Shown one piece after another: positions 46,989 through 62,746 of a DNA stretch of 64,000 nt. The notes under the pieces were generated by a model that worked only from the letters and a program-made list of their open reading frames with translations, made no database searches and had not been told where the DNA came from. The translations under genes were made by a program, and so were the position numbers. Position 1 is the stretch's first letter. Each line of letters begins with the position of its first letter. Source of the stretch: Escherichia phage vB_EcoM_E9.1; the sequence record PP886230; one strand, given 5' to 3'.

Positions 46989-47237
46989 GCAGTTTACAAA
47001 TCTTTACAATTGCCGGTATTGACTTATTTTGTCAGTACTGGCATAATGTATTCATTGGCAGATAAGCCGTAGCCCATAGGGTGCGGGAGTGTATCTATAG
47101 AAAAATTAGTTTAGTATAGTTACAATTGTGCACCCGGTGGGTTAGCTGTTGTCATGGGGTATATTATGCCAGTACTTGATAATGCTGTCAATACTTTTTT
47201 TTACTATCCAGTACAGAAAACTATTTTTAAAAAGTAC

Positions 47238-47384
47238 TTGCAAACTATGTTTAAAGGCGTATAATGTTTTACATCAGGACGGGGGAACGAAATAAGTAAC
47301 TTCCCGTTAAGTAGCCCAGGAGTAAGGCACACGAAAAACTCCCCTGATAAAATAGTTTGACAAATGTTTTTAAAAGCGTATAAT
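47238..47384 (+). promoter_or_regulatory. dual-promoter module with conserved inter-promoter element (copy 1)
   Basis: TTGCAA..TATAAT (47238-47265), ~73-nt element caggacggggg...cccctg, then TTGACA..TATAAT (47357-47384). Confidence 0.55.
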
Positions 47385-47416
47385 ACTTACATCAACTACT
47401 GAATGAGGGTTACAAA

Positions 47417-48028
47417 ATGAAAACTATCACTACTACTACTTTCGTTATGGATTTTTCTGAATTGAACGCAGAACAAAAAACGTCAGCTATCGAACTGGTT
47501 CGGGAACGTGAAAAAAACTCAAACGACAATTATTTTTCTGAAAGTGAAATTGAATACTATAAAGAAACAGTACTACCGGAATATGGCATTAATGACGCTG
47601 AAATACAATTCAGTGGCTTTTGGTCCCAGGGTGACGGTGCATCAATCAGTACTGACCACGTTGACGCAGTGAAGTTTTTACGCAAGGTAAGAGCATTAAC
47701 TAAGTATCGCTCAATCCGTCACTTGCTGAATGAAGATGATTTGGCGATGAGTGTAAAGCGTTCGCACTCCCACTACTCGCATGAGAATACTGTAAGCGGG
47801 TACATTGAATCGGCTTACACTGATTTAACCGCAAAACAAGAAACGTTAGTTAATGAGCTTGAGGAACTACTCACTGATACTATTCGTGAATTGTCCCGCA
47901 AGTTGTACCGTGATTTAGAGAATGCATATGAGGATCAATTCACTACTGAAAACATTACGGCACTGATTGAGGGTAACGAGTATCAATTCAATGTTATTGA
48001 TGGCGTAGTGGAATCAATCGAATATTAA
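47417..48028 (+). CDS. hypothetical protein (203 aa)
   Basis: downstream of dual-promoter module; RBS gaggg. Confidence 0.6.
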   Translation: MKTITTTTFVMDFSELNAEQKTSAIELVREREKNSNDNYFSESEIEYYKETVLPEYGINDAEIQFSGFWSQGDGASISTDHVDAVKFLRKVRALTKYRSIRHLLNEDDLAMSVKRSHSHYSHENTVSGYIESAYTDLTAKQETLVNELEELLTDTIRELSRKLYRDLENAYEDQFTTENITALIEGNEYQFNVIDGVVESIEY

Positions 48029-48040
48029 TTTAAAAAGTAC

Positions 48041-48099
48041 TTGCAAACTAAGTTTAAAAGCGTATAATACTTTATATCGAGAGCGGGAATAGTTCCCGC
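48041..48099 (+). promoter_or_regulatory. PeSL-like cassette
   Basis: TTGCAA .. TATAAT .. GCGGGAAtagTTCCCGC. Confidence 0.6.
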
Positions 48100-48120
48100 T
48101 ACTAATGAGGAATACTACAA

Positions 48121-48285
48121 ATGAATACTTTTACCTTCGCTCAATTGAACGCCCTGGATGTATTGTCTGATGCTTTGCGGGATGCAACTGAAAGCGGTTT
48201 ATTTGACAATGTTGACATTCACCCTGATGTAATTAATAATTTTTGTGATGCTATCGCAGAAGTACTGGAAGATCTAAAAAAATAA
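48121..48285 (+). CDS. hypothetical small protein (54 aa, not in track)
   Basis: ATG after promoter-hairpin cassette and RBS gagg. Confidence 0.5.
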   Translation: MNTFTFAQLNALDVLSDALRDATESGLFDNVDIHPDVINNFCDAIAEVLEDLKK

Positions 48286-48295
48286 TAGAAAGTAC

Positions 48296-48355
48296 TTGCA
48301 ATTAGTTTTTAGTACTGTATAATGTTTTACATAGAGGGGAGAAATGGTTCTCCCT
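48296..48355 (+). promoter_or_regulatory. PeSL-like cassette
   Basis: TTGCAA .. gtactgTATAAT .. GGGGAGAAatggTTCTCCC. Confidence 0.6.
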
Positions 48356-48373
48356 GGTAATGAGGAAAATACA

Positions 48374-48595
48374 ATGGCTAATATCACTACTCTTTCCCAA
48401 CTGGAAGCACTGGTTAAATCTATGCGGGAACATGCCGACAATATCGGCGTAAAAGATCCAGCCGTTTGCTTCTGCGACGAATTGAATGATGATACCCTGG
48501 TAATAGCAGAAGTCCAGGACGTTTCTAACTATTCCTCGCGTTACACTGGCGGCGTAGCAAATAAAGGTGACTTCTGTTTATACCTTACCAAATAA
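48374..48595 (+). CDS. hypothetical protein
   Basis: internal ATG (MANITTLSQ) after RBS; cassette upstream. Confidence 0.55.
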   Translation: MANITTLSQLEALVKSMREHADNIGVKDPAVCFCDELNDDTLVIAEVQDVSNYSSRYTGGVANKGDFCLYLTK

Positions 48596-48763
48596 CAACG
48601 CGGGGAGATAATAACTCCCCGTTACTTTTTCAGTACTGAATCATTTAATAGACGGATCTCGGCACCCGGTGGGTTAGTGACTGTTTCGTCTTGATGTAGT
48701 AATTATGCCAGTACTGGATGCACTTGTCAACAACTATTTTTCAAATACTTTTTATTAAAATAC

Positions 48764-48817
48764 TTGCTAATAGTTTTTAAACGCGTATAATGTTTTGCAT
48801 AGGGGGAGCGGTTCCCC
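48764..48817 (+). promoter_or_regulatory. PeSL-like cassette
   Basis: TTGCTA .. TATAAT .. GGGGAgcgGTTCCCC. Confidence 0.55.
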
Positions 48818-48838
48818 TGGTAACTAAGGAATAATAAA

Positions 48839-49075
48839 ATGCTTGAACAAATCAAATCAACGTCTGCGAATGTAACGGGAACGGTTGTACACTTTACTAG
48901 TGATGAATCGCGGGGCGTTCCCTATTGTGCTGTACATGTAAACACTGATGGCAACTACTGGTTTACGGTTTACGGATCATATTCATTTGGACGACCAGGG
49001 CATCAAAAAATTCTGGATAAAGTACAGCCAACGGGTAAAAATATCACGGCTGAAATGTTTTATAAAAAATCATAA
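48839..49075 (+). CDS. hypothetical protein (78 aa)
   Basis: cassette upstream; RBS aagga. Confidence 0.55.
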   Translation: MLEQIKSTSANVTGTVVHFTSDESRGVPYCAVHVNTDGNYWFTVYGSYSFGRPGHQKILDKVQPTGKNITAEMFYKKS

Positions 49076-49080
49076 AGTAC

Positions 49081-49140
49081 TTGATAATAGTTTTTAGTAC
49101 TGTATAATATTTTACATCGCAAGGGGGTAATGGTTCCCCC
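49081..49140 (+). promoter_or_regulatory. PeSL-like cassette
   Basis: TTGATA .. gtactgTATAAT .. GGGGGTAAtggTTCCCCC. Confidence 0.55.
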
Positions 49141-49160
49141 TGGTAACTAAGGATAATCAA

Positions 49161-49460
49161 ATGAAAGTTGCATTCATCGCCCTGGCTTTATCTGTTTCCT
49201 CTTTTGCTGTTAATGCGTCGTTAGATGTAAGTAGTGAAAAATTCATTCAGTGCACTGTAGCAATGACAGATGAAAGTACTGGCGAGATTGTATTAAAGGA
49301 TCTGGAGATTCAGCCGGAAGCATTTAAAAACGGCCCGTTCCATGAAGAAGACGAAAACGGTAGCACAACAATTTATTATGATGCCAGTACTAAACGCGGG
49401 TCGGTCACTGTTATGGATACTGAGAAAGTAACTCATACTGGCGTTATTAATTGCCGTTGA
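49161..49460 (+). CDS. secreted protein (signal peptide)
   Basis: N-terminus MKVAFIALALSVSSFAVNA. Confidence 0.6.
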   Translation: MKVAFIALALSVSSFAVNASLDVSSEKFIQCTVAMTDESTGEIVLKDLEIQPEAFKNGPFHEEDENGSTTIYYDASTKRGSVTVMDTEKVTHTGVINCR

Positions 49461-49481
49461 TAGATACTACGGGGTAACATC

Positions 49482-49712
49482 ATGACTAAGCGAATTGTTT
49501 TACTTAACGAAAGCAGTACTACACAACTACTTAACGCCGTGCATTATGATATTGAAACGAGCGTTAATCTTATCAGTACTGTAGTACTGTTGGACACTGG
49601 AAAGGTCGCCAATGATAAAGCGATTGCAGGTATACTAACGGATCTTGAGCCTGGTAGCAGTGCACCAATAACGTTAAATGGTAAAGTGTTTAATATTTTA
49701 CTCACTGATTAA
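49482..49712 (+). CDS. hypothetical protein (76 aa)
   Basis: ORF followed by intrinsic terminator. Confidence 0.55.
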   Translation: MTKRIVLLNESSTTQLLNAVHYDIETSVNLISTVVLLDTGKVANDKAIAGILTDLEPGSSAPITLNGKVFNILLTD

Positions 49713-49718
49713 GTACAT

Positions 49719-49742
49719 AGCCCACCTGGTGGGCTTTTTTGT
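49719..49742 (+). terminator. intrinsic terminator
   Basis: agcccacctggtgggct + T-run. Confidence 0.7.
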
Positions 49743-49943
49743 TTTTGTAGTATCGTAGTACTGAGATACTTTGAAAATAGTTTTAAAAAAGTAGTTGACA
49801 TTACCGCAGAAAAGCGTAGAATGTATTACATCAAGACGGGGAGCACTAAGTAGACCGCCAGTAAGTCGAACGAAAAACTGGACACGTCGAGAAAACTTTG
49901 ATACACTAATAAACGTAAACTAAACTTTAATTGAGGATTTATA

Positions 49944-50426
49944 ATGGCTAATGTAAAATCATTCATCAAAGCACTGGTAGCAAATGAAACTAACGTCGCG
50001 GCTGAGATCCTGGCTGAACTGGATAACGATACCATGAAAGCGGTACGCAATAATTTTAACATCGCGTACAGTACTGCGAAAGAACTACAAGCAAATAAAG
50101 CGGCAGAAATTGAAGCGGCAAAGGCGGCCCGTGAAGCAGAACTACAAGCAACAATCGAAAGTATCCAGGCGGCGGTGTCTGGATTGGATCTGGAAGTGGT
50201 TGTGGAAATGGCACATAAAGCCCTGGCGGTTAAGTATGGTGAAGATAAGCCAGAATCTAAACCCAAAAAATGGATTCAGGAACGCGTAGCGGTAGTACTG
50301 GACAACGGGGAAGAATATCTGATTCCGGTGCGTGGTAACTGTATTGCGGTAGTACTGGACGCTATCAAAGAAAGCGGTATGACTCGCGAGGAATGGATCG
50401 AAGCTCATCGCAAAGTTGAAGCATAA
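49944..50426 (+). CDS. hypothetical protein (160 aa), Ala/Glu-rich helical
   Basis: long 5' leader after promoter at ~49795; RBS gagga; terminator downstream. Confidence 0.6.
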   Translation: MANVKSFIKALVANETNVAAEILAELDNDTMKAVRNNFNIAYSTAKELQANKAAEIEAAKAAREAELQATIESIQAAVSGLDLEVVVEMAHKALAVKYGEDKPESKPKKWIQERVAVVLDNGEEYLIPVRGNCIAVVLDAIKESGMTREEWIEAHRKVEA

Positions 50427-50447
50427 CAATTAAAGTACTGAATCACT

Positions 50448-50473
50448 AGCCCACTGTATAAGTGGGCTTTTTT
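50448..50473 (+). terminator. intrinsic terminator
   Basis: agcccactgtataagtgggct + tttttt. Confidence 0.7.
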
Positions 50474-50637
50474 GTGTTTATCGTTTACCAGGCCACCAGC
50501 ACCGCCTAGAAACGATTCTAACGCATTAAACGGATTATCTGATGCATTGCCCTAGCTGGTGGCGTTAAGGCTGTAAGAACGCGATTGAGAGCGTTTAAAG
50601 TATTTTGCAAAAAGTAATAAAAAGTACTTGAACGATT

Positions 50638-50687
50638 AAGAGATTAGCGTATAATGTTTTACATCGAGAGGGGGAAACGGTTCTCCT
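50638..50687 (+). promoter_or_regulatory. PeSL-like cassette
   Basis: TTGAAC .. TATAAT .. GAGGGGGAAacggTTCTCC. Confidence 0.55.
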
Positions 50688-50710
50688 TCCAAATCAAAGG
50701 AATCAAAACA

Positions 50711-50938
50711 ATGGCTATTATCATTACTCGCGTATCTGGTACTACTGGCAACGAACAAGTAGTTGCAGTCATTACGAACAAGGCAGGTGCGGAATTGCAA
50801 AATGCAATGAATACCTGGGCCGTTAATGAGTTCGGTCAGTGGGCAAGTGTAGCATACATTGAAACCTATCAAGTGCCGTCGATTAGTTTAACTGATTTGG
50901 GCGTTGAGCGTATCCTTTGCCTTGATGAATTAAATTAA
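50711..50938 (+). CDS. hypothetical protein
   Basis: internal ATG (MAIIITRV) after RBS aagga. Confidence 0.55.
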   Translation: MAIIITRVSGTTGNEQVVAVITNKAGAELQNAMNTWAVNEFGQWASVAYIETYQVPSISLTDLGVERILCLDELN

Positions 50939-50946
50939 AAAAGTAC

Positions 50947-51006
50947 TTGCAAAGTAAATCGAATAAAGTATAATACATTACATCAAGGGGAGAAATGGTT
51001 CTCCCC
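50947..51006 (+). promoter_or_regulatory. PeSL-like cassette
   Basis: TTGCAA .. TATAAT .. GGGGAGAAatggTTCTCCCC. Confidence 0.6.
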
Positions 51007-51023
51007 ACTACAAGGAAACTAAA

Positions 51024-51236
51024 ATGGCTATCATTACTAAAATCAAAGTTAGTAAATCACTGGTTAAACTTGAAGAAGTGAAAGAAGGTTATAAAGTATC
51101 TTGGTGCGGTATGTATCGGACGTTCGCAGATATAGATGATGCGATCAATTATTACACTGACACGGTTAAAAACTTTGTTCGTGCTGATGTGGTTATGGCA
51201 GTGGCAACATATAAAGCATCAAAAGAAAGTAAGTAA
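51024..51236 (+). CDS. hypothetical protein; N-terminus resembles 54180 ORF
   Basis: MAII.K start; cassette upstream. Confidence 0.55.
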   Translation: MAIITKIKVSKSLVKLEEVKEGYKVSWCGMYRTFADIDDAINYYTDTVKNFVRADVVMAVATYKASKESK

Positions 51237-51317
51237 AAATATTATCACAGTACTATTGACATAGTTTGATAGTACTGGCATAATAACTTTTATCAAGACA
51301 ACTAAGAGGAAATTAAA

Positions 51318-51662
51318 ATGGCTAACATCAATACTATAGCAGCACAAAATATCAACCTGTCTTCTGTTGAAGTTGTACATATTGCCGCTCGGCGTTGGTT
51401 CCAGGCTTCATATGGTAACACTTATTTCTCTTTAAGTGTAGACGTAGAAATTGATGGTAATTTTATTGAAGTAGTAAACGTGCCGTTCCAATATGGATAC
51501 GGGGATCATTTTGACACTGTAGCAATGGAAGAATTTAGCAAGGTTATTAATATGGAAGGTAAAGAGTTTTTACGCGGTTCTTATCTTTCCCGTTTTTGCC
51601 GTGATAATAATATCACTGTTTATAGTTCTGTTAGTGATGTTAAACGCAAAAAAGATCTTTAA
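51318..51662 (+). CDS. hypothetical protein; paralog of 58202 ORF
   Basis: shared RW..GNTY...YGYG...VKRKKD motifs. Confidence 0.6.
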   Translation: MANINTIAAQNINLSSVEVVHIAARRWFQASYGNTYFSLSVDVEIDGNFIEVVNVPFQYGYGDHFDTVAMEEFSKVINMEGKEFLRGSYLSRFCRDNNITVYSSVSDVKRKKDL

Positions 51663-51742
51663 TTAGCTTTACTTTATGCAGATACTTTGATATAGTGTCT
51701 GCATAGGGGAAAGAAATTAAATTAACTTAAGAGGATAGTATA

Positions 51743-52012
51743 ATGAAAAATATCAGTACTTTAATCGATGCAGGTACTCATGTTCGTCGGTCTATGGTTG
51801 CAACCAGTACTACAAAACAAGTAGCGAGCGGTTATCTTGTATTTGTGCACGATGGTAAACTCCTGGAACGTTCAATCAATTTTGATGTTAAAAACAATTG
51901 CCGTTTTATTATCTTTAAGCGTGAGCAATATAAAATTGATTTACCAGCAAAGCCCATTAGTGGGGCGTACAACGTGCAATCATTGTTTGAACGTCAACCA
52001 TACACCTATTAA
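51743..52012 (+). CDS. hypothetical protein (89 aa)
   Basis: RBS agagga. Confidence 0.5.
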   Translation: MKNISTLIDAGTHVRRSMVATSTTKQVASGYLVFVHDGKLLERSINFDVKNNCRFIIFKREQYKIDLPAKPISGAYNVQSLFERQPYTY

Positions 52013-52063
52013 TCAAAACATCGTTAGCGGTCGATTCAGGCCGCTTATATTGGGGATTATACC

Positions 52064-52336
52064 ATGAACGTTAATCAAGTACTGAATGAGATCGAAAGCA
52101 TCATTAAACCGATGAAGCGTACTGATGCTATGTTAACACCGGAAGAATGCCGCCTTTATGAGCGTTACAGCGTCGAACAAGTCCAGGCAATGGCTATGGC
52201 TACCCCAGCCGTTAAACCGCCTGAGAATGCGTTACAGGACGTTACAGGGGATTATATCATCAATCCAGTACTAGGGAAGATGGCTGCAATCACCGAAGAT
52301 CAACAAGACTACTTAAGCCAGTACTTAAAAGGTTAA
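52064..52336 (+). CDS. hypothetical protein (90 aa)
   Basis: ORF with RBS. Confidence 0.5.
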   Translation: MNVNQVLNEIESIIKPMKRTDAMLTPEECRLYERYSVEQVQAMAMATPAVKPPENALQDVTGDYIINPVLGKMAAITEDQQDYLSQYLKG

Positions 52337-52341
52337 TTAAT

Positions 52342-52551
52342 ATGCTTACTGTACAGGATAAGATCGACATCTTAAAGGTTAATATGTATGTGATTGATGC
52401 AGAACCTGGTAAAGTATTTGCATACGATGATAGTACTGTAAGCGATTTCTACTATAGCCAGGCCGTGGGGGATCTTTCTGTACAGTCGGTTATTGAAAAC
52501 GTAGTTAATGCAGCGTATGAGCATTTACTTTCAAATAGTACTTGCAATTAG
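52342..52551 (+). CDS. hypothetical protein (69 aa)
   Basis: ORF. Confidence 0.5.
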   Translation: MLTVQDKIDILKVNMYVIDAEPGKVFAYDDSTVSDFYYSQAVGDLSVQSVIENVVNAAYEHLLSNSTCN

Positions 52552-52600
52552 TTTTTAAACGCGTATAATGTTTTACATCGAGAGCGGGAATAGTTCCCGC
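52542..52600 (+). promoter_or_regulatory. PeSL-like cassette
   Basis: TTGCAA .. TATAAT .. GCGGGAAtagTTCCCGC. Confidence 0.6.
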
Positions 52601-52621
52601 CTCACTTTTAAGGAATATGAA

Positions 52622-52768
52622 ATGAAAGCATCAAAAAAGAGTACTAACAAGAAAGCACGTTCAACCTTAGATGGGGTATTCCCTTTACGTTTCGTTGATG
52701 AAGTGGTTTCCTACCCGCCTGGCCTTACTCCTGAGATGGTAGAAAGTTTGCGTAAATCTAAAAAATAG
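52622..52768 (+). CDS. hypothetical small basic protein
   Basis: internal ATG (MKASKKSTNK) after RBS aagga. Confidence 0.5.
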   Translation: MKASKKSTNKKARSTLDGVFPLRFVDEVVSYPPGLTPEMVESLRKSKK

Positions 52769-52771
52769 TAC

Positions 52772-52831
52772 TTGCAATTAGTTTTTAGTACTGTATAATG
52801 TTTTACATGAAGGGGAGAAATGATTCTCCCC
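52772..52831 (+). promoter_or_regulatory. PeSL-like cassette
   Basis: TTGCAA .. gtactgTATAAT .. GGGGAGAAatgaTTCTCCCC. Confidence 0.6.
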
Positions 52832-52849
52832 AATAACAGGAGAAACAAA

Positions 52850-53002
52850 ATGAAACAATACAACGCTCGGTTTGATGTTACTATCGGTAACGGCAAAGGT
52901 CAATTCTCTTTCAGTACTCGCCGCAGTTATACAGAAAACTTCCTGCGTAATTGTGCATTGACCGCCGCTCAAATTAAACATTATTTTCAGGCTAAAAAAT
53001 GA
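52850..53002 (+). CDS. hypothetical small protein
   Basis: internal ATG (MKQYNARF) after RBS aggaga. Confidence 0.5.
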   Translation: MKQYNARFDVTIGNGKGQFSFSTRRSYTENFLRNCALTAAQIKHYFQAKK

Positions 53003-53088
53003 GATCATTAGCTTATTACAGTTCGGCCCTGGTCGGTGCATTGATCGCGGCGTTGTTAGTAACCTATCTATTCTTTATGGTGATTTAA
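52999..53088 (+). CDS. small hydrophobic peptide (29 aa)
   Basis: ATGA overlap with upstream stop; single TM-like helix; not in track. Confidence 0.4.
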   Translation: MRSLAYYSSALVGALIAALLVTYLFFMVI

Positions 53089-53226
53089 ATGAATCCTAAC
53101 GGTATAATTTACAGTACTCCTAAAACGAAAGCAGACAAGGTAAACGCTAAAAAAGCGAAAGTAAAGGAGTACATCAAACAAGGAATGACACGAAAGGCGG
53201 CGATTCTAAAAGCTAAAAATAAATGA
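53089..53226 (+). CDS. small Lys-rich peptide (45 aa)
   Basis: TAAATG overlap; not in track. Confidence 0.35.
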   Translation: MNPNGIIYSTPKTKADKVNAKKAKVKEYIKQGMTRKAAILKAKNK

Positions 53227-53230
53227 AAAA

Positions 53231-53264
53231 GTGGTTGACTTCGGTCAGCCATTTTGCTATTATA
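53231..53264 (+). terminator. terminator/promoter hybrid element (second-half variant)
   Basis: TGGTTGACttcgGTCAGCCAtttt GC TATTAT. Confidence 0.55.
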
Positions 53265-53367
53265 TATTCATTGAGAGATAGCTCACTAGCCCACAGGGTG
53301 CAGGAGTGTATCTATTGTATAATGTTTGAGTACTGAAAACTATTTTAAAGTATTTGATAAAAAGTAC

Positions 53368-53426
53368 TTGCAAACTATCTCAATAAGCGTATAATGTTTT
53401 ACATCGCAAGGGGAAACGGTTTCCCC
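53368..53426 (+). promoter_or_regulatory. PeSL-like cassette
   Basis: TTGCAA .. TATAAT .. GGGGAAAcggTTTCCCC. Confidence 0.6.
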
Positions 53427-53446
53427 TAGTAATAAGGAAACGAATC

Positions 53447-53788: not shown

Positions 53789-53802
53789 TATTAAAAAATA
53801 GT

Positions 53803-54905: not shown

Positions 54906-55236
54906 ACTATTGACAATATCATCCAGCACTGGCATAATACTTACACCAAGACGAGAACGTCACTAACCCATAGGGTGCACAAATGTAACTGTATAATATT
55001 GATCAAAAAATGATCTGATCAATACTTGATCAATTTGCGTAAAGTAGTATAATTCTATGCAGTTGGTTAGACGAAAGGTTATGATTAGTAGTGCAAGTGT
55101 ATAAAAATTTTCATGGTGTATCGTTCCGCACATATGGGGATGAATATGTGGTATCATGTGGATTGGAAAAAGTAAGAACAAGTAATATTATTGTCGCATT
55201 ACAGTACTATAGTATTTTTATAATGAGGTTAAAATA

Positions 55237-55914: not shown

Positions 55915-55992
55915 TACTTGCATTTAGTTTTCAGTACTGTTATAGTACTTGCATCAAGGGGAAACATCTTCCCCTACTAAGAGGAAATAAAA

Positions 55993-56181: not shown

Positions 56182-56208
56182 TATTAATTTAATAGAGGAT
56201 AACAATAA

Positions 56209-56532: not shown

Positions 56533-56538
56533 AAACTA

Positions 56539-56598
56539 TTGACAATGCAACCCAGTACTGTATAATAGTTTACATGAAGGGGAGAAATGATTCTCCCC
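56539..56598 (+). promoter_or_regulatory. PeSL-like cassette
   Basis: TTGACA .. gtactgTATAAT .. GGGGAGAAatgaTTCTCCCC. Confidence 0.6.
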
Positions 56599-56615
56599 AC
56601 TGAGAGGAAAGAAAA

Positions 56616-56828
56616 ATGCAAGGTCAACTAATCGTTCGTAAATGGTCTGATACTAACGAAAAACCGTGGGATGTACAATACATCGGACCGGATGGGGTAT
56701 CACGTTATCAGCCTGGCGTAACGCATAGTACTGAGCAATATGCCGCCGCTCACCGCGAACGCCTGTTAGAATCCATGAAACAGGGATTCTGTGAAAAATT
56801 CATTCAAGATCATTGGCTGAAAGATTAA
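56616..56828 (+). CDS. hypothetical protein (70 aa)
   Basis: cassette upstream; RBS gagagga. Confidence 0.55.
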   Translation: MQGQLIVRKWSDTNEKPWDVQYIGPDGVSRYQPGVTHSTEQYAAAHRERLLESMKQGFCEKFIQDHWLKD

Positions 56829-56845
56829 TAGAAGGAGTACAGCTT

Positions 56846-56938
56846 ATGCAAATGAATCCGATGATTATTGTTTTAGCTGTACTTATGATCATTCATGCAA
56901 TTGTAGAAGTATTAACGCAATCAGGAGTAATAAAATGA
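56846..56938 (+). CDS. small hydrophobic peptide (30 aa)
   Basis: RBS aggag; single TM-like helix; not in track. Confidence 0.4.
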   Translation: MQMNPMIIVLAVLMIIHAIVEVLTQSGVIK

Positions 56939-57108
56939 TTCAAGTAGAATTATCAGTACTGAAAGATCTGTTTTATCGGTTAGGTACTACTGGAGAGTAT
57001 CCTAAAAGTGATACCGCAAAACTTTTTGTATCACTCGACTTATGGCAACGCGAACAATTAGTAATGTCCTGGCGTAAAGGTAAAGCAGATCGCGAGGTGA
57101 AAGCATGA
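56935..57108 (+). CDS. hypothetical small protein (57 aa)
   Basis: ATGA overlap; not in track. Confidence 0.4.
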   Translation: MIQVELSVLKDLFYRLGTTGEYPKSDTAKLFVSLDLWQREQLVMSWRKGKADREVKA

Positions 57109-57254
57109 AAGAATTCTTATTCGAAGTAGTGTTTCAAGGTGTCGGTAGTAACCAACTGATTCGCTCAAGTGGTTACAATGTTAACCAGGCATGGAATAAC
57201 ATTAAACAAATGTACCCGAACGCTATCACCTATCGCAACCCGAAAGAAGTTTAA
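57105..57254 (+). CDS. hypothetical small protein (49 aa)
   Basis: ATGA overlap; not in track. Confidence 0.4.
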   Translation: MKEFLFEVVFQGVGSNQLIRSSGYNVNQAWNNIKQMYPNAITYRNPKEV

Positions 57255-57267
57255 AAATATTTGAAAA

Positions 57268-57303
57268 AGGGATTGACTCCGGTCAGTCCCTTTGCTATTA
57301 TAT
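57268..57303 (+). terminator. terminator/promoter hybrid element (second-half variant)
   Basis: GGGATTGACtccgGTCAGTCCCttt GC TATTAT. Confidence 0.55.
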
Positions 57304-57391
57304 ACGCATAGAAACAATTCAGCCCACCGGGTGCATAAATGTATCTATTATATGCTGGTGGCTAGTACTGAAAACTATTTTTAAAAAGTAC

Positions 57392-57535
57392 TTGCATTGT
57401 ATTTAGAATCAAGTATAATGTTTTACATCAGGACGGGGAACGAAACAAGTAACCCCGTTAAGTAGTCCAGGAGTAAGACATACGAAAACCTCCCCTGATA
57501 AAATAGTTTGACAATAGAAATTAAACGAGTATAAT
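57392..57535 (+). promoter_or_regulatory. dual-promoter module with conserved inter-promoter element (copy 2)
   Basis: TTGCAT..TATAAT, element caggacgggg...cccctg (~57429-57496), TTGACA..TATAAT. Confidence 0.55.
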
Positions 57536-57567
57536 ACTTACATCAACCACTGATAAGGAAACATAAA

Positions 57568-57843
57568 ATGCGGATTCTACTGACAGCTAACGAAATCGAA
57601 CAAGTACTGACTACTAACCTGGAAGACTGGAAACGTGAAGCAGATATCCAGGCGGTTCAATGGTTAAATGATAAGTTAACGCCGGATGACTTAAGCAAGA
57701 TTGTAGATCCTCAATTCTACGAAGATATCCACGACACCGCGTTAAGCGTCGAGGATGTACTAGATAAGCACTTTATTGATACTGATTTGCAGGTTTACGG
57801 TCGTAAAAACTTTATCACTATTCACGACATTTACAATAATTAA
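57568..57843 (+). CDS. hypothetical protein (91 aa)
   Basis: downstream of dual-promoter module; RBS aagga. Confidence 0.55.
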   Translation: MRILLTANEIEQVLTTNLEDWKREADIQAVQWLNDKLTPDDLSKIVDPQFYEDIHDTALSVEDVLDKHFIDTDLQVYGRKNFITIHDIYNN

Positions 57844-57846
57844 GTA

Positions 57847-57908
57847 TTGACAAAGTATCTTAGTACTGTATAATAGTTTACATCAAGCGAGGGGAATGGT
57901 TCCCCTCC
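57847..57908 (+). promoter_or_regulatory. PeSL-like cassette
   Basis: TTGACA .. gtactgTATAAT .. GAGGGGAAtggTTCCCCTC. Confidence 0.6.
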
Positions 57909-57930
57909 TAACTAAAAGAGAGAAATAAAA

Positions 57931-58113
57931 ATGGCTAAGTGCACTATCTGCAAGAAAGAAATAGTATTAGTTCCAAGTGCCCGTGAACGTGCCGCTCGGT
58001 TCGGTGGCAAAGCGTCAGACTATACAAAAATGTTTACTACCCATACAGCTTGCCAGGTAGCAAAACGTTCACAAGAAAGCGTAGAATTAATGCGTAAACT
58101 TTCCAAAAAATAA
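57931..58113 (+). CDS. small basic Cys-containing protein (60 aa)
   Basis: CTICKKE....HTACQ; cassette upstream. Confidence 0.55.
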   Translation: MAKCTICKKEIVLVPSARERAARFGGKASDYTKMFTTHTACQVAKRSQESVELMRKLSKK

Positions 58114-58116
58114 GTA

Positions 58117-58179
58117 TTGACAAAGTATCTTAGTACTGTATAATAGTTTACATCAAGTGAGGGGAAACGGTTCCCCTCC
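58117..58179 (+). promoter_or_regulatory. PeSL-like cassette
   Basis: TTGACA .. gtactgTATAAT .. GAGGGGAAacggTTCCCCTC. Confidence 0.6.
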
Positions 58180-58201
58180 TAACAAAGAGAGAGAAATAAA
58201 A

Positions 58202-58525
58202 ATGGCTATGATCCTTGCCCAGAAAGTAGAATTGAAAATTGTAACCTCCTTTGACATTAACGTTAATCGGTGGACTGATTCACACGGCAATACTTACCAC
58301 TCTTGCTACGTGTCTGCGTTAATTGGCGACCGCTGGGAAGACCTGGGACACGAAACCTTTACATACGGTTACGGTACACAAGGCGAATACACGGGCTTGG
58401 AGATCATTAAAGAAACCGTTATAGGTTTCAACCCGAAAGAAAAAGTTATTCACCGCATCGAGGAAGAGATCAACAAAGAAATAACAGTTCGCTACCACGA
58501 TGTAAAACGTAAGAAAGACATGTAA
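58202..58525 (+). CDS. hypothetical protein; paralog of 51318 ORF
   Basis: internal ATG (MAMILAQ); shared motifs with 51318. Confidence 0.55.
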   Translation: MAMILAQKVELKIVTSFDINVNRWTDSHGNTYHSCYVSALIGDRWEDLGHETFTYGYGTQGEYTGLEIIKETVIGFNPKEKVIHRIEEEINKEITVRYHDVKRKKDM

Positions 58526-58620
58526 TAGAATCCATTTAAAGTACTATTTGACATTGCCCAGATAGTACTTTATAATAGACTCTAACTTGTAGTACTAACT
58601 TAACTAATAGGATGTATACC

Positions 58621-59016
58621 ATGATTACTAAATTCTACGCTACCCGTGAAGCTGCCCGTATTGTTGCACGCGAGGAAGGCGAAACATTTAAAGACATGGG
58701 CAAAGATGCACCGAAAGGTCAACGCTGGGCCGTACAGTTCAAAGAGATCTCTGATATTGTGAATTCACCGGAGCCAGTACTAACAGCAGCAGAACTAAAA
58801 CGAGCGGATTTACTGGCGTCAATACTTGATGCACAAGATGAGTTTATCGCTGATTCTGATATCAAAGTACAGACAAACCACACCGCTTGGACTCACGCGG
58901 ATCACCTGGCAAACCTTAAGCGTCCAAGTGAACTGATTCGCAACCAGAAAGAGATCCGACACGACCGTAAGGGTAATCGTGTAACAGTATACAGTAAACG
59001 CCGCCAGGTTATCTAA
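58621..59016 (+). CDS. hypothetical protein; paralog of 46404 ORF
   Basis: KFYATREAARIVAR..TFKDMG..DRKGNRVTVY; terminator downstream. Confidence 0.6.
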   Translation: MITKFYATREAARIVAREEGETFKDMGKDAPKGQRWAVQFKEISDIVNSPEPVLTAAELKRADLLASILDAQDEFIADSDIKVQTNHTAWTHADHLANLKRPSELIRNQKEIRHDRKGNRVTVYSKRRQVI

Positions 59017-59039
59017 TAACTTGCAGTACTAACAACACG

Positions 59040-59065
59040 GCGGGATCAGTTCCCGCCTTTTTTAT
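59040..59065 (+). terminator. intrinsic terminator
   Basis: ggcgggatcagttcccgcc + tttttt. Confidence 0.7.
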
Positions 59066-59077
59066 AGGACAAACAAA

Positions 59078-59332
59078 ATGATTAAGGTTCAACTATATAA
59101 AGATAACATCTTACGGGTACACTATAAAGCACCTCAGAGAATCATCACAAAGGCCGTACAGCTTGCTAATGAGTTTATTAATGGTAACCTATTACCAAGG
59201 AAGTTAAGCAACGGGAAACTGCGTGTAATCGATGTGGACACTAACAACAGAATAGTAATAGAGAACACAGGAAAAATAAACCTATATGAACACCAACAAT
59301 ATAATAAGAAAATAAAACTAATATCACGTTGA
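59078..59332 (+). CDS. hypothetical protein (84 aa)
   Basis: ORF after terminator. Confidence 0.5.
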   Translation: MIKVQLYKDNILRVHYKAPQRIITKAVQLANEFINGNLLPRKLSNGKLRVIDVDTNNRIVIENTGKINLYEHQQYNKKIKLISR

Positions 59333-59385
59333 CAGTACTCAAATGTTTTAGTACTATATGTACATACCAACACGGGGGAAACAAA

Positions 59386-59628
59386 ATGATTACTTTAGAA
59401 AAACGTATCAAAGAAACTACATCGCTGGTGGAACTGTTAACAGTACTCAAATGTAAAACAACACCATTCAGCACGCCGGACTTTATTAATATGGTTGATG
59501 TTAATGGTCGCTATCGTATCACGGTCGAACAAGGAGCGGCGAAAGTATTCAGTACTAAAAACACGAAGGAAGTGATCCACGCCGTTAATGTTAAAAAAGT
59601 AGTTGCCATTGATAGTAAAGTACTGTAA
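59386..59628 (+). CDS. hypothetical protein
   Basis: internal ATG (MITLEKRIKE) after RBS. Confidence 0.5.
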   Translation: MITLEKRIKETTSLVELLTVLKCKTTPFSTPDFINMVDVNGRYRITVEQGAAKVFSTKNTKEVIHAVNVKKVVAIDSKVL

Positions 59629-59659
59629 GATAGTTACATTAACTCAAGGAGAACATGCA

Positions 59660-60244
59660 ATGCGTAATTATACTAAATTCATCCGTACACTGTCAGAAAT
59701 GGAAACCAACAAAGAGATCCTTTCAGCTTGTCGGTTAGCTGGCCTGGAGATCATCGGTGCTGGTTCTTCCCGTATAGTATTCGCTTTAAATGATCGGTTA
59801 GTGATTAAGGTCGCGAATTGTGATGCGGGTGTAGAACAAAATGAAACTGAATGTAAGGTATGGAATTTTTTAGACTATGACCGCCCTCAGTTGAAACAGT
59901 ACTTTGCAAAGGTGCATATGCATTTATGCGATCCTGATAATATGTTTATCGTTATGGATCGGTTGAGTACTGCAAGCAAAGGCAGCGTAAAGCACGTTAA
60001 CGCGTGCAACGAATTAAAGTATAATATTAAACGTAATGCCATTGAACGCCAGCACCGCTTTGCTGATGCACTACAACACGTTGATGATACATTATCAACA
60101 CTAACGATAAGAGATATCAGAAAACAGAATATCGGCCAGGATCGTAATGGACTTATTAAAGTACTTGATTACGGTTTAACCCGCAATATCTGGAATCAGT
60201 ACTATAAAAAGCGTGATGTAGAAGCAAGTAAGGTAACACGATAA
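59660..60244 (+). CDS. mini protein-kinase-like protein
   Basis: IGAGSSRIVF (Gly loop), VIKVA (Lys), RDIRKQN (catalytic loop D-x4-N), VLDYG (DFG-like); internal ATG with RBS aaggag. Confidence 0.6.
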   Translation: MRNYTKFIRTLSEMETNKEILSACRLAGLEIIGAGSSRIVFALNDRLVIKVANCDAGVEQNETECKVWNFLDYDRPQLKQYFAKVHMHLCDPDNMFIVMDRLSTASKGSVKHVNACNELKYNIKRNAIERQHRFADALQHVDDTLSTLTIRDIRKQNIGQDRNGLIKVLDYGLTRNIWNQYYKKRDVEASKVTR

Positions 60245-60258
60245 AAAAAGATTAAAAA

Positions 60259-60295
60259 AGGGATTGACTCCGGTCAGTCCCTTTGCTATTATATA
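60259..60295 (+). terminator. terminator/promoter hybrid element (second-half variant)
   Basis: same as 57268 copy. Confidence 0.55.
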
Positions 60296-60385
60296 TTCAT
60301 TGAGAGATAACTCACTGACCCATAGGGTGCGGAAGTGTATCTATTATATAAGTATTCAGTACTGAAAACTATTTTTAAAAAGTAC

Positions 60386-60446
60386 TTGCATTGTACTTAG
60401 AATCAAGTATAATGTTTTATATCGAGAGGGGAAATGGTTCTCCCTC
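60386..60446 (+). promoter_or_regulatory. PeSL-like cassette
   Basis: TTGCAT .. TATAAT .. GAGAGGGGAAatggTTCTCCCTC. Confidence 0.6.
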
Positions 60447-60466
60447 AAAGAACAAGGAATAAAATC

Positions 60467-60688
60467 ATGACTACAATGACTTGCATTCACGCTTCAAACC
60501 TGCTTAATGATGCGGCCTTTAATGTTGAAACAGAATATCAATGTTATCGGGATGAAAATAAAAAAGTTTTTGTAGTTGATAATAATGGTTTCCATATTGA
60601 ATTGCAATCCGGCTTCACTGGCGTTGATGGTAAATCAGTATGGGGCGTACAGGATGATAAAGGCACATATCATTTTAAACGTAATTAA
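60467..60688 (+). CDS. hypothetical protein
   Basis: internal ATG (MTTMTCIH) after RBS aagga. Confidence 0.5.
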   Translation: MTTMTCIHASNLLNDAAFNVETEYQCYRDENKKVFVVDNNGFHIELQSGFTGVDGKSVWGVQDDKGTYHFKRN

Positions 60689-60691
60689 GTA

Positions 60692-60750
60692 TTGACAAAG
60701 TATATCAGTACTGTATAATAGTTTACATCAAGGGGAGAATAGTTCTCCCC
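60692..60750 (+). promoter_or_regulatory. PeSL-like cassette
   Basis: TTGACA .. gtactgTATAAT .. GGGGAGAAtagTTCTCCCC. Confidence 0.6.
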
Positions 60751-60774
60751 ACACCAATAAAAGGAAACATAATT

Positions 60775-61047
60775 ATGTCTAGCTACTCCGCTACTATGAT
60801 CATTAAAGATATGAACGGTAATCCTACTTCTGCTGGTGGATCATTTGGAAACATTAATTTAGATGGTCGGTTATCCATGCAATCAGCAATCGATGCAGCG
60901 AAAGAAGTTTTTAAGAATGAATGTACTGTTAGTAAGCTGGATTATATGGGATTTGCTATCGAAAAAACTAATCGTTTTGTGGACTACAAAAAACCACTGA
61001 TGATTGATACTAACCTGAAAGCAAACGAAGTGGAGTACTTATTATGA
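60775..61047 (+). CDS. hypothetical protein (90 aa)
   Basis: cassette upstream; RBS aagga. Confidence 0.55.
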   Translation: MSSYSATMIIKDMNGNPTSAGGSFGNINLDGRLSMQSAIDAAKEVFKNECTVSKLDYMGFAIEKTNRFVDYKKPLMIDTNLKANEVEYLL

Positions 61048-61235
61048 CAGTTGAAGAAGTAAAAAAAGTACTGGCAGTACTACGCTATCATAATCATTGT
61101 AAGGTGAAGAATGATCCTGATTATCTTGATTCATCCCTGGAAGAGGATACACTACAAGCAATAAGCCATATGCAAAAAATGCTTAAGCGTATGACCGAAA
61201 AGAACAGGCCAGACTATATCGGAAATAAAATTTAA
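61044..61235 (+). CDS. hypothetical protein (63 aa)
   Basis: ATGA overlap. Confidence 0.5.
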   Translation: MTVEEVKKVLAVLRYHNHCKVKNDPDYLDSSLEEDTLQAISHMQKMLKRMTEKNRPDYIGNKI

Positions 61236-61242
61236 AAAGTAC

Positions 61243-61303
61243 TTGCATTGTAGTTAGATTAACGTATAATGTTTTACATAGAGCGGGGGAATAGTTCTCC
61301 CGC
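61243..61303 (+). promoter_or_regulatory. PeSL-like cassette
   Basis: TTGCAT .. TATAAT .. GCGGGGGAAtagTTCTCCCGC. Confidence 0.6.
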
Positions 61304-61321
61304 CAGTCCAGGAGATACACC

Positions 61322-61585
61322 ATGAACACTATCGAAATCACTATCAATGCACACGTATACGACAACGTAGTACTGCAAACTACTATGACCGCTAATGATA
61401 CCAGTACTTTGCGGAATACTGTTATTAGTGCCGTATGTGCCGCTATCGGTGATGTCGCCCTGGAAAATGCAAAACACGTAAACGATGGTTTCACTATGTG
61501 CAAACGTGATAACGCAAAACATATCATCGTGGAAGGTTACGGCGGTGTAGAATTTAATGTTTATATGAAAAAAGTACTTGCATAA
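61322..61585 (+). CDS. hypothetical protein (87 aa)
   Basis: cassette upstream; RBS aggag. Confidence 0.55.
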   Translation: MNTIEITINAHVYDNVVLQTTMTANDTSTLRNTVISAVCAAIGDVALENAKHVNDGFTMCKRDNAKHIIVEGYGGVEFNVYMKKVLA

Positions 61586-61634
61586 TAACTAAAACAAAGT
61601 ATAATGTTTTGCATAGGGGGAGATATCCTCCCCC
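61578..61634 (+). promoter_or_regulatory. PeSL-like cassette
   Basis: TTGCAT .. TATAAT .. GGGGGAGatatCCTCCCCC. Confidence 0.55.
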
Positions 61635-61652
61635 ACTAAAAGGAGTACTAAA

Positions 61653-61877
61653 ATGGCTAACTTTGATGAACTGATGCGGGAAGTAGCTAACCTGGCAGAA
61701 GAGAAGAAATCATTCGATTCTATCTATAACACCGCTCATCGTGATTCAGTACTGGCATGTAACCAGGATCAAAAAGATGAACTAATCGCCACCTATCATG
61801 AAGCATGGAAGTACTACCGACAATGGGAGAAAGAAGAAAGCGAGTCTACCATCAACGGCATCAATAATCTAATCTAA
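61653..61877 (+). CDS. hypothetical protein (74 aa)
   Basis: cassette upstream; RBS aaggag. Confidence 0.55.
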   Translation: MANFDELMREVANLAEEKKSFDSIYNTAHRDSVLACNQDQKDELIATYHEAWKYYRQWEKEESESTINGINNLI

Positions 61878-61953
61878 AAGTTTTATTTCAGTACTATTGA
61901 CATAGCTTGATAGTACTGATGTAATAACTTTACTAACTACAAGGGGAAACATA

Positions 61954-62211
61954 ATGGAACAGTTCACACAATATCGGGTAAATCCTCAAGCTATGGCCTA
62001 CGTAGAAGACCATAAAACGTTACCAGTACTGCAACCAGTTAAAGGCCATATCTATCGTGCAATGTCGTGGTGTGCGGCCCAGGATGGCTATAAAACCGTA
62101 GCCGTGGGTATGTACTGCGGTAATGGTGAATGGTTTGATCCAAATAATCCGGTAGCCATTGACAGTACTGAAAAAATGAAATGGGCCGACTACATCGAAG
62201 ATATTTCATAA
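61954..62211 (+). CDS. hypothetical protein (85 aa)
   Basis: promoter TTGACA..CTGATGTAAT upstream. Confidence 0.5.
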   Translation: MEQFTQYRVNPQAMAYVEDHKTLPVLQPVKGHIYRAMSWCAAQDGYKTVAVGMYCGNGEWFDPNNPVAIDSTEKMKWADYIEDIS

Positions 62212-62218
62212 AAACTAT

Positions 62219-62279
62219 TTGACAGTACTAACCAGTAATGTATAATGTTTTACATAGAGCGGGGGAATAGTTCTCCCGC
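62219..62279 (+). promoter_or_regulatory. PeSL-like cassette
   Basis: TTGACA .. TATAAT .. GCGGGGGAAtagTTCTCCCGC. Confidence 0.6.
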
Positions 62280-62301
62280 CAATAGTTTGGAGTTAAACAT
62301 T

Positions 62302-62502
62302 ATGTCTATCGCTATCTCCCTGGTTGAAGTACTGAAAGAAGCTAAAGCCAACCAGATCGACGTAAAGATCCAGGAACTACAAAACGGCTTAATCGGCTGT
62401 ACTTGTACCGCTGGTGGAGCGGCAGACTATCGAGAACACGAATCACTCGAATCACTGGTTCGGTATCTTTCCATGATCGTTGATGATTGGAGAATCATCT
62501 AA
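62302..62502 (+). CDS. hypothetical protein
   Basis: internal ATG (MSIAISLVEV) after RBS ggag. Confidence 0.5.
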   Translation: MSIAISLVEVLKEAKANQIDVKIQELQNGLIGCTCTAGGAADYREHESLESLVRYLSMIVDDWRII

Positions 62503-62518
62503 CAAAAAAGAATAAAAA

Positions 62519-62555
62519 AGGGATTGACTCCGGTCAGTCCCTTTGCTATTATATA
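62519..62555 (+). terminator. terminator/promoter hybrid element (second-half variant)
   Basis: same as 57268 copy. Confidence 0.55.
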
Positions 62556-62746
62556 CGCATAGACAAAAACTAGCCCACAGGGTGCATAGGTGTATCCAAA
62601 ATATATAGTTAATAACGGTGAGTAACTATCTGCTGGTGGAACTAAAACTATTAATAAAAAAGTATTGACAAAGTATATCAGTACTGCGATAATGTATCTC
62701 GTAGGGCGGCAATGGTGCGACGGCCCACAAAGTTAGGAGATTCAAA

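Follow-up and report, generated by a model that had tools for sequence, protein, structure and literature searches.

A repeated promoter-coupled module with two hairpins in the terminal repeat of Escherichia phage vB_EcoM_E9.1 and related jumbo phages

Among the closest described counterparts of the element reported here are the PeSL cassettes of T4-type phages, which combine a terminator-like stem-loop with a near-consensus sigma-70 early promoter and recur many times in plastic genome regions, where they lie between small early genes that are ORFans (PMC2839356; PMC4122927). In a stretch of 64,000 nucleotides from Escherichia phage vB_EcoM_E9.1 (sequence record PP886230; this whole stretch is referred to as the window), we analyzed a module that is alike in these respects. 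It consists of a promoter followed by an RNA domain of ~50 nt with two hairpins, the second of which is formed by a repeated box, CCCAYNGGGTGC. PeSLs are defined by the upstream stem-loop and the promoter and no conserved transcribed domain has been described for them (PMC4122927), whereas the conserved part of the module lies 3' of the start, comprises two hairpins, one with an invariant stem, and is kept across genera in which the hairpin upstream of the promoter is absent or different. Within the window, the stem-loop overlapping or preceding the promoter that is typical of PeSLs is present at 53228, 57266, 60257 and 62517, but not in the five other copies.

Lambda nut (boxA plus boxB) as well as putL and putR of phage HK022 likewise place a short structured RNA just 3' of early promoters in terminator-punctuated operons. 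In HK022 put, two stem-loops lie next to each other, and the stem sequences of putL and putR differ by compensatory changes. The module may be likened to put in this two-hairpin architecture, but closed units, in which the module is followed by a terminator or a facing copy, would argue against a put-like activity. Unlike nut, it has no boxA and no pentaloop boxB, and no N-like peptide was found. Moreover, there are 8–13 module copies per genome as compared to two for nut or put, and many of them lie directly before terminators or face each other with no gene downstream. Stabilizer hairpins such as that of the ompA leader, which protect RNAs from 5'-end-dependent decay, and the first hairpin of the module (hairpin 1) are alike in lying near the 5' end, predicted in the case of the module, and in keeping structure rather than sequence; however, stabilizers need no invariant second hairpin. 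Small RNA genes ending in a terminator share with the closed units the order of promoter, ~100 nt without an open reading frame (ORF) and intrinsic terminator, but rarely exist in about ten near-identical copies and do not form shared bidirectional terminators from their own conserved cores. Finally, RNA anti-CRISPRs, or solitary repeat units, are phage RNAs that mimic a protein-binding hairpin, and the module may share with them the idea of a small, invariant and highly expressed hairpin RNA serving as protein handle or decoy. Hairpin 2 is presumably unlike the type I-E or I-F repeats of the hosts, and in contrast to RNA anti-CRISPRs, the same hairpin 2 is kept in phages whose hosts carry different CRISPR types.

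Box copies and their promoters

The original prediction had reported a box of ~25 nt at six sites of the window. All six exist within 0–4 nt of the reported positions (47073, 53290, 54967, 57323, 60319 and 62574, all on the plus strand), but three further copies on the minus strand (44975, 47130 and 48662) and two degenerate copies had been missed. The 3' part of the reported box, GTGTATCTAT, is conserved but not invariant (consensus U-N-Y-R-U-C-Y-R-U, 5 nt past the box). When the window was searched for the 12-mer CCCAYAGGGTGC allowing two mismatches, 12 matches were obtained, while 3.1 ± 1.9 were expected and none of 100 shuffled sequences reached 12. Nine of the 12 deviate by at most one mismatch, the sole departure being the third base of the loop. 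A covariance model built from related copies and run without speed filters over all 64 kb detected exactly nine strong copies scoring 37–64 bits. The next-best match reached 16.4 bits (45113–45167) and corresponds to a degenerate copy, which faces a second degenerate copy on the minus strand near 45191–45204. The intrinsic terminators at 49719–49735 and 50448–50468 have stems of the type AGCCCAC...GTGGGCT and share AGCCCAC with the 5' half of the box. As they have no covariance-model match, they are regarded as ordinary terminators rather than box copies.

Every copy is preceded by a −35/−10 pair representing a strong sigma-70 promoter. Alignment of the nine window contexts revealed an invariant TTG in the −35 element, a −10 element and a conserved CAT at the expected transcription start, followed by the box. 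The predicted distance of 20–30 nt between promoter and box is borne out: of 84 related copies, 71 of them distinct, 83 have this spacing between the end of the −10 element and the first base of the box. A consensus scan of the region from 44 to 64 kb distinguished two promoter classes. Promoters preceding the box are composed of TTGACN, a 17-nt spacer and TG one base before YATWAT in eight of the nine window copies. The genes' own promoters carry TTGACA or TTGCAA, a 16-nt spacer, TATAAT and GTTTTACAT, precede a leader hairpin of the form GGGGAGAA...TTCTCCCC together with a ribosome-binding site, and never have the box. The box belongs to a promoter class separate from the genes' own promoters. 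This class had escaped the original prediction, as had the facing pairs, hairpin 1 and the restriction to the terminal repeat that are described below. The "terminator/promoter hybrid" which it had placed upstream of the box is real in four of the nine window copies (53228, 57266, 60257 and 62517), in which the −35 element lies within a 12-bp terminator-like hairpin; the other five do without it.

Two further repeated features were noticed in the promoters of this region. Gene-proximal promoters with a perfect TTGACA-16-TATAAT arrangement followed by GTTTTACAT are found at twelve sites (44259, 47357, 53803, 54387, 55501, 56539, 57508, 57847, 58117, 58548, 60692 and 62219; the spacer is 17 nt at 58548). 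About half of them continue with a leader hairpin of the type GGGGAGAAnnnnTTCTCCCC, and all twelve with a ribosome-binding site and an ATG. The leader hairpin thus constitutes a repeated RNA element distinct from the module. The palindrome CAGTACTG occurs at 63 sites of the window as compared to 0.86 expected (e.g. at 44949, 45021, 47033, 48631, 48709, 60357 and 62679), both within the terminal repeat and beyond it. It lies directly 5' of the −10 element in many promoters, thereby providing the TG of the extended −10 in box promoters, and also ~20 nt 3' of the box domain (UUCAGUACUGAAA). Its probable role is that of a promoter element or of an operator recognized by a phage regulator.

Two hairpins in the RNA domain

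The RNA domain begins 2–6 nt past the predicted transcription start, i.e. the A of the conserved CAT. It opens with hairpin 1, which has a stem of 3–5 bp of any sequence and an A-rich loop of 6–8 nt (e.g. AGAUAA, AGAACAA, GCGAAA or GAGAAA). A linker of 3–4 nt (YUA or UUG) leads to hairpin 2, i.e. the box, in which R-CCC and GGG-U enclose the 3-nt loop AYN. Downstream follow GC, a purine-rich 5-mer and the U-N-Y-R-U-C-Y-R-U stretch.

Evidence for hairpin 1 comes from its variation among relatives. A small hairpin precedes the box in nearly all copies, with a stem that varies between them yet remains complementary. The 87 distinct copies contain 29 different complementary stems at this position, among them UGGC/GCCG, AGCA/UGCU, AGACA/UGUCU, GCC/GGC, UGAG/CUCA, GGAG/CUCC, GACG/CGUC, ACCG/CGGU, ACCAC/GUGGU and ACAAA/UUUGU. 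A hairpin score of at least 4 was reached by 78% of these copies, but only by 25% of shuffled leaders. In an unfitted MAFFT alignment, 62 cells of hairpin 1 are changed on both sides of the stem versus 28.6 ± 4.9 after shuffling (0 of 500 shuffles reaching the observed value). The box-anchored alignment yielded 76 such cells versus 47.2 ± 6.1 (0 of 500) and a covariation score of 0.281 versus 0.185 (0 of 500), and all controls in which the position was slid scored lower.

Of 67 copies, 38 have G.U and 27 have A-U as the pair that closes hairpin 2. The relatives had first been gathered with a pattern fixing ten of the 12 box positions, which limits what can be said about invariance of the box from these copies. 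A model search of the relatives additionally retrieved ~18 variant copies outside the reach of the pattern. They include hairpin 2 loops of 4 nt (UCAA, UAGA, UAUA, GUAA and UUUA), one copy with the compensatory stem ACCU-ACA-AGGU, and copies with GU, GG or UC in place of the 3' GC. According to these variants, the fixed part is the CCC/GGG stem followed by UG. Additional long-range pairings, including a helix that would close the domain by joining its 5' end to the UGUAUCUAU tail, were also considered and dismissed, as they gave weak signals with z of 3–4 among hundreds of column pairs. The best of them is a 3-bp hairpin 3 (AGA-UGUA-UCU), which is paired in 63% of cells and weakly supported. 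Strand asymmetry (G.U versus A.C) at the pair flanking hairpin 1 was uninformative (9 versus 7).

The gaps holding the box had been described as devoid of ORFs, and indeed no frame is consistently open with a start codon across the box in 70 copies inspected for an overlooked conserved small ORF. The best frame has a start codon in 35 of the 70, lies on the antisense strand and has a median length of 21 codons, while sense frames have a start codon in 9–23 of the 70. Nonetheless, some deposited genomes carry a "hypothetical protein" annotated over the module (e.g. OR532817, NC_027399, MK773491, PP191103 and PQ464590), and these calls are doubtful since no conserved ORF spans the box. ARAGORN detected no tRNA or tmRNA in the window. 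Rfam 15 had no match at gathering score in the whole window, and when E values up to 10 were allowed for positions 44800–48900, which contain three strong copies and the degenerate pair, the four matches were at chance level and none was on the module. The literature on phages CBB, PA5oct, phAPEC6, Sharanji and fEgEco12 describes RpoD-like early promoters or terminal repeats, but no such element. A link to the non-coding RNAs defined by RNA-seq in the distant relative PA5oct was rejected, as the box is absent from them, and the literature searched contained no transcriptome of an Asteriusvirus, Alcyoneusvirus, Mimasvirus or Eneladusvirus. Absent from Rfam and from this literature, the structured RNA motif looks new.

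Closed units, facing pairs and the terminal repeat

In the window as well as in phages RaK2 and GAP32, the genes of the module region all point one way. Modules oriented against the genes are followed by an intrinsic terminator within ~100 nt or by a facing module. Antisense modules with a terminator are present in the window (48730 to 48601, minus strand) and twice in RaK2 (7759 and 14826, both minus strand). The window unit (48601..48730) comprises a promoter at 48730–48702, the RNA domain at 48697–48640 with the box at 48673–48662 (53.5 bits), the palindrome CAGTACTG at 48638–48631 and an intrinsic terminator at 48621–48601 (CGGGGAGTTATTATCTCCCCG plus CGTTGTTATT); its predicted RNA is ~100 nt long and without an ORF. 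Several copies in other contigs show the same anatomy of a small RNA gene, i.e. their own promoter, no ORF and a terminator within ~150 nt.

For a facing pair, the RNA predicted to result from read-through forms one long hairpin, as the box of one copy pairs with the anti-box of its partner. The pair in the window is formed by the plus-strand copy 47019..47106 (promoter 47019–47047, RNA domain 47052–47106, box 47073–47084; 54.6 bits) and the minus-strand copy 47108..47191 (promoter 47191–47163, RNA domain 47157–47108, box 47141–47130; 41.8 bits). The read-through RNA 47054–47165 has a folding energy of −42.7 kcal/mol (z = −5.35) and the fold of the facing minus-strand copy one of −28.8 kcal/mol (z = −4.42). 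The corresponding pair in RaK2 reaches −46.7 kcal/mol (z = −5.27) and is followed by the U-rich tail GGGCUUUUCGAUU. This box:anti-box hairpin suggests that two facing copies act as each other's terminator. The degenerate copies mentioned above face each other as well. The copy on the plus strand (45113..45167; E = 0.16) has ACCTGCTAGGGTGC as hairpin 2 (45132–45145), followed by GGGAG and TCTATCC. Its counterpart on the minus strand (45170..45258) has a promoter at 45258–45231 (TTGACT-16-TATAAT), a hairpin 1 with CGC and GCG enclosing gagaaa, and the variant hairpin 2 ACCCCAGGGGGTGG (45204–45191). One clade of relatives has the palindrome GCGAAATGATAATCATTCGC or GAGAATGATAATCATTTAC in the spacer that separates facing copies (loci L002:8050-8136, L008:1248-1334, L042:3082-3168 and L055:6060-6139); it matches the core of the E. 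coli Fur box, AATGATAATCATT.

Sense-oriented copies of the window are of a third, tandem type, in which the module lies ~100 nt 5' of the gene's own, different promoter. Here, the plus-strand copy 53228..53323 (terminator hairpin 53228–53255 holding the −35 element, promoter 53235–53263, RNA domain 53268–53323, box 53290–53301; 61.6 bits) precedes the gene's own promoter at 53368–53395, and the copy 54910..55000 (promoter 54910–54938, RNA domain 54943–55000, box 54967–54978; 54.1 bits) precedes a second promoter at 55026–55053. Three more plus-strand copies start with a terminator/promoter hybrid. These are 57266..57356 (hybrid 57266–57301, RNA domain 57306–57356, box 57323–57334; 52.6 bits), 60257..60352 (hybrid 60257–60292, RNA domain 60297–60352, box 60319–60330; 64.4 bits) and 62517..62607 (hybrid 62517–62552, RNA domain 62557–62607, box 62574–62585; 56.2 bits), the last being followed by the next promoter at 62665–62693. 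On the minus strand, the copy 44953..45042 (promoter 45042–45015, TTGCTT-16-TATAAT; RNA domain 45010–44953, box 44986–44975 with the sequence CCCATCGGGTGC; 37.2 bits) is followed by a second promoter at 44917–44889.

Among 61 non-redundant copies, 19 face a partner, eight have a scored hairpin with a U-tract and 19 precede a second promoter, located ~70–100 nt downstream in tandem copies. Seven more have hairpins that are evident by eye, four of these being GC-rich terminators. Taken together, over half of the non-redundant copies look like closed units of ~95–130 nt, delimited by a terminator or a facing copy. In the copies with domains starting at 57306 and 60297 and in two copies of fEgEco12, the downstream promoter itself can fold into a hairpin, CAUUGUACUU/AAGUAUAAUG, with UUUU behind it. 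The idea that the downstream promoter provides a terminator in all tandem copies did not hold in general, as this hairpin is absent at 53268, 54943 and 62557.

A 6-kb piece around the box is 97.6% identical to Escherichia phage SP27 and 92–98% identical to PBECO4, G17, fEgEco12 and other Asteriusvirus jumbo coliphages (~350 kb). In the annotated relative G17, the corresponding gaps hold nothing but "terminator" features and small hypothetical genes. The direct terminal repeat of fEgEco12 measures 20,993 bp according to PhageTerm and restriction digests (PMC13070987), and repeats of 20,668 bp were predicted by PhageTerm for Sharanji (PMC11895373). Using blastn, positions 1–1500 of fEgEco12 map to 43894–45376 of the window and positions 19501–20993 to 62509–64000, indicating that 43,894–64,000 is the equivalent of this direct terminal repeat of ~21 kb, the immediate-early region. 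It holds every copy of the window, while the other 43.9 kb contain no module copy and no model match above 16.4 bits. A physical genome end at the facing pair 47073/47130 was also considered and is rejected, since blastn places the end at 43,894. In fEgEco12, the same nine copies and the degenerate pair (positions 1256 and 1328) lie inside the repeat and none in the next 3 kb.

The restriction to a short span extends to the relatives. Scanning viral contigs with a pattern consisting of the box plus TGTA retrieved ten jumbo-phage contigs of ~346–378 kb and several fragments of the same group, besides scattered chance matches in unrelated GC-rich contigs. In each of the ten jumbo-phage contigs, all matches are within one span of 15–25 kb, and the 378,379-bp genome of CBB, in which the repeat is written twice, has matches at both ends. 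BLAST with one RaK2 copy yielded matches in jumbo phages of Klebsiella, Salmonella, Escherichia, Cronobacter, Pectobacterium and Erwinia, and in Muenster, CBB and fENko-Kae01 "terminal repeat" is the depositors' own annotation under the match. At a threshold of 37 bits, nine copies are present in fEgEco12, eight in RaK2 (28 kb searched) and 13 in GAP32 (first 31 kb). The module occurs 8–13 times per genome, which applies to RaK2, GAP32, CBB and the Yersinia, Erwinia and Salmonella relatives.

Two further observations concern the repeat as such. Cumulative GC skew peaks near 24 kb and has its minimum near 44 kb of the window; gene orientation flips at both positions, and the left end of the terminal repeat falls on the flip near 44 kb. 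Chi of E. coli, GCTGGTGG, is found at 16 sites of the window (15015–62639), while 0.58 were expected and no shuffled sequence had more than three. Sites in the repeat are at 44471 and 50493 on the minus strand and at 44483, 50555, 54624, 56086, 57354, 59424, 60832, 62410 and 62632 on the plus strand. One minus-strand site is ~600 bp from the left end, and all sites in the right two-thirds of the repeat are on the plus strand, which is how Chi must be oriented there to stop RecBCD coming in from the right end of the genome. The Chi site 57354–57361 begins at the 3' edge of the domain 57306–57356 and extends just past it, and that at 62632–62639 comes just after the module 62517..62607. In other genera, Chi or its complement is found within the spacer of the box promoter itself (TTGACAnnCCACCAGC...).

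Readings of the module and their implications

We favor the reading, to which we assign a balanced chance of being correct, that the box is the conserved stem and 3' flank of hairpin 2 in a multicopy immediate-early small-RNA or leader module with a protein-recognition hairpin. It builds on the repetition, the promoter coupling, the hairpin covariation, the absence of an ORF, the restriction to the terminal repeat and the terminator contexts observed here, and transcription, the RNA ends, stabilization and a protein partner would be its further components. Since the module is an independent cassette that occurs in either orientation and is insulated when antisense, its RNA, or the synthesis of this RNA, is likely to be the product, rather than the leader of one particular gene. 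According to the proposed mechanism, host RNA polymerase would fire the box promoters once the repeat enters the cell, yielding abundant short untranslated RNAs or RNA leaders. Hairpin 1, located 2–6 nt from the 5' end, would shield the RNA from 5'-end-dependent decay, a role modeled on the known stabilizer hairpins, and hairpin 2 with the adjoining UG(C) would be a sequence-specific handle for a protein. Candidate partners are an early phage protein that is conserved or a host factor shared by the Enterobacterales, and rather than representing a coding leader, the RNA itself may be functional, e.g. by titrating or recruiting that factor. A bolder version, which we regard as doubtful, is that the terminal repeat of RaK2-like jumbo phages devotes about ten immediate-early genes to one small RNA. 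With its invariant hairpin, this RNA would sequester or take over a factor that is conserved in the Enterobacterales, for instance an enzyme of RNA decay, an RNA chaperone or a defense protein that senses RNA.

The suggestions of the original prediction can be judged on this basis. A family of short non-coding transcripts, the transcripts being predicted ones, is consistent with the own strong promoter, its fixed distance, the compensated hairpins, the lack of an ORF and the finding that over half of the copies end within ~130 nt. The alternative of a protein-binding site survives as a candidate protein-binding RNA hairpin, but a double-stranded DNA operator is disfavored, because the element is strand-specific relative to its promoter and the G.U closing pair (38 of 67 copies) would be an A.C mismatch on the other strand.

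Several points weigh against the favored reading. When single sequences of the domain are folded, the signal is weak (z from −1.5 to +0.1), so that comparative evidence is needed, and from the MAFFT alignment RNAalifold predicted hairpin 2 alone. The copies are paralogues, for which reason significance is somewhat overstated by the shuffle controls. Where the RNAs start and end and how abundant they are is predicted from the sequence. In about a third of the copies, no clear terminator separates the module from the promoter and gene that follow, and these copies may be long leaders rather than discrete RNAs. No arginine-rich N-like peptide that could serve as partner was found among the ORFs of the repeat. 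Finally, in facing pairs the finished RNA would bury hairpin 2 in a long helix, which is awkward for a hairpin acting as handle.

The placement of the element close to the promoter at a fixed distance and the preservation of two adjacent hairpins by compensatory changes would also suit a cis-acting leader that modifies RNA polymerase, either directly like HK022 put or with a phage protein like lambda nut. The repeat is cut into short units by terminators overlapping the next promoter, and with two classes of promoter in each gene block, transcripts would meet one of two fates. Transcripts from box promoters should then ignore the terminators of the repeat or resist Rho, while those from the genes' own promoters should stop. 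However, such a signal would be senseless in the more than half of the copies that lead straight to a terminator or a facing copy and have no gene after it, and antisense-oriented copies are always closed. Furthermore, no boxA-like sequence accompanies the modules (YGCTCTTWA had 45 matches versus 48.6 expected, none in a module), no ORF of the repeat exceeds ~4 Arg, or a value of 5 for Arg plus half the Lys, per 15-residue window, and the hairpin 1 loops of 6–8 nt are not boxB-type pentaloops. We therefore consider antitermination unlikely. Similarly improbable, in our judgment, is that the promoter cassette alone matters and the box is the transcribed tail of a mobile PeSL-like terminator-promoter cassette spread by recombination, with the hairpins acting as generic 5' stabilizer or promoter-escape sequence. 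The four window copies in which a terminator hairpin overlaps the −35 element have the exact PeSL layout (PMC4122927), the copies of any one genome resemble each other closely for >100 bp, and the modules sit between small ORFan genes in an indel-rich region, in which the 6-kb query is broken into 3–8 pieces per relative record. This would leave unexplained the compensatory CCU/AGG variant, the antisense copies with their own terminators and, for a generic stabilizer, the constancy of a CCC/GGG stem plus UG in phages of at least six host genera, given the drift of hairpin 1 and all flanks; described PeSLs, moreover, have no conserved transcribed element (PMC4122927).

A signal acting at the level of DNA appears quite unlikely to us. 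The 12-mer would be an operator for an early regulator or, comparable to ops and RfaH, a hairpin of the non-template strand in a paused complex, the pause being at the U-G five bases downstream. Its length of 12 nt and its position in the leader resemble ops, facing pairs would form a symmetric DNA site, and GG located 10–11 nt before a conserved U (93%) that is followed by G (62%) fits the pause consensus G-10/Y-1/G+1. On the other hand, this G is not conserved in 38% of the copies, and the ops consensus GGCGGTAGnnTG is absent from the modules (21 matches versus 18.4 expected at up to two mismatches). Hairpin 1 covaries although it is outside any transcription bubble, and hairpin 2 has a loop of 3 or 4 nt and a stem that changes compensatorily, arguing for pairing rather than base read-out. 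The closing G.U pair is asymmetric between the strands. Very unlikely, finally, is a persistent R-loop formed by the G-rich RNA segment GGGUGCGGAG with AT-rich DNA behind it, which would prime DNA synthesis or stimulate recombination between the repeats, as at T4 ori(uvsY) and ori(34) or in ColE1. The restriction of the modules to the terminal repeat, their independence of downstream genes, the G-rich patch followed by 60–70 bp of AT-rich sequence and the co-location with the oriented Chi cluster would be compatible with this, but 8–13 origins within 20 kb of a 350-kb genome are implausible, facing promoters would direct the primers at each other, and known R-loop origins lack covarying hairpins.

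Giant phages of the RaK2/121Q/GAP32/CBB group are candidates for phage therapy, and most of their genes have no known function. Within the genome part whose expression is expected to come first, few non-coding features found here are as conserved as the module. Its promoters are near-consensus promoters of the host type, and because it lies in the terminal repeat it is written twice per genome. It accounts for the "empty" gaps of 200–430 bp and defines two promoter classes in the early region. If its RNA is made as predicted, it represents a family of structured RNAs of ~50 nt that is new and shows clear covariation, and hairpin 2 provides a simple experimental handle for pull-down of a partner. 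The conserved cores of two facing copies would form a shared bidirectional terminator, which is a compact design principle. If the bolder version outlined above is true, host take-over by these phages would start with an RNA decoy before any phage protein is made.

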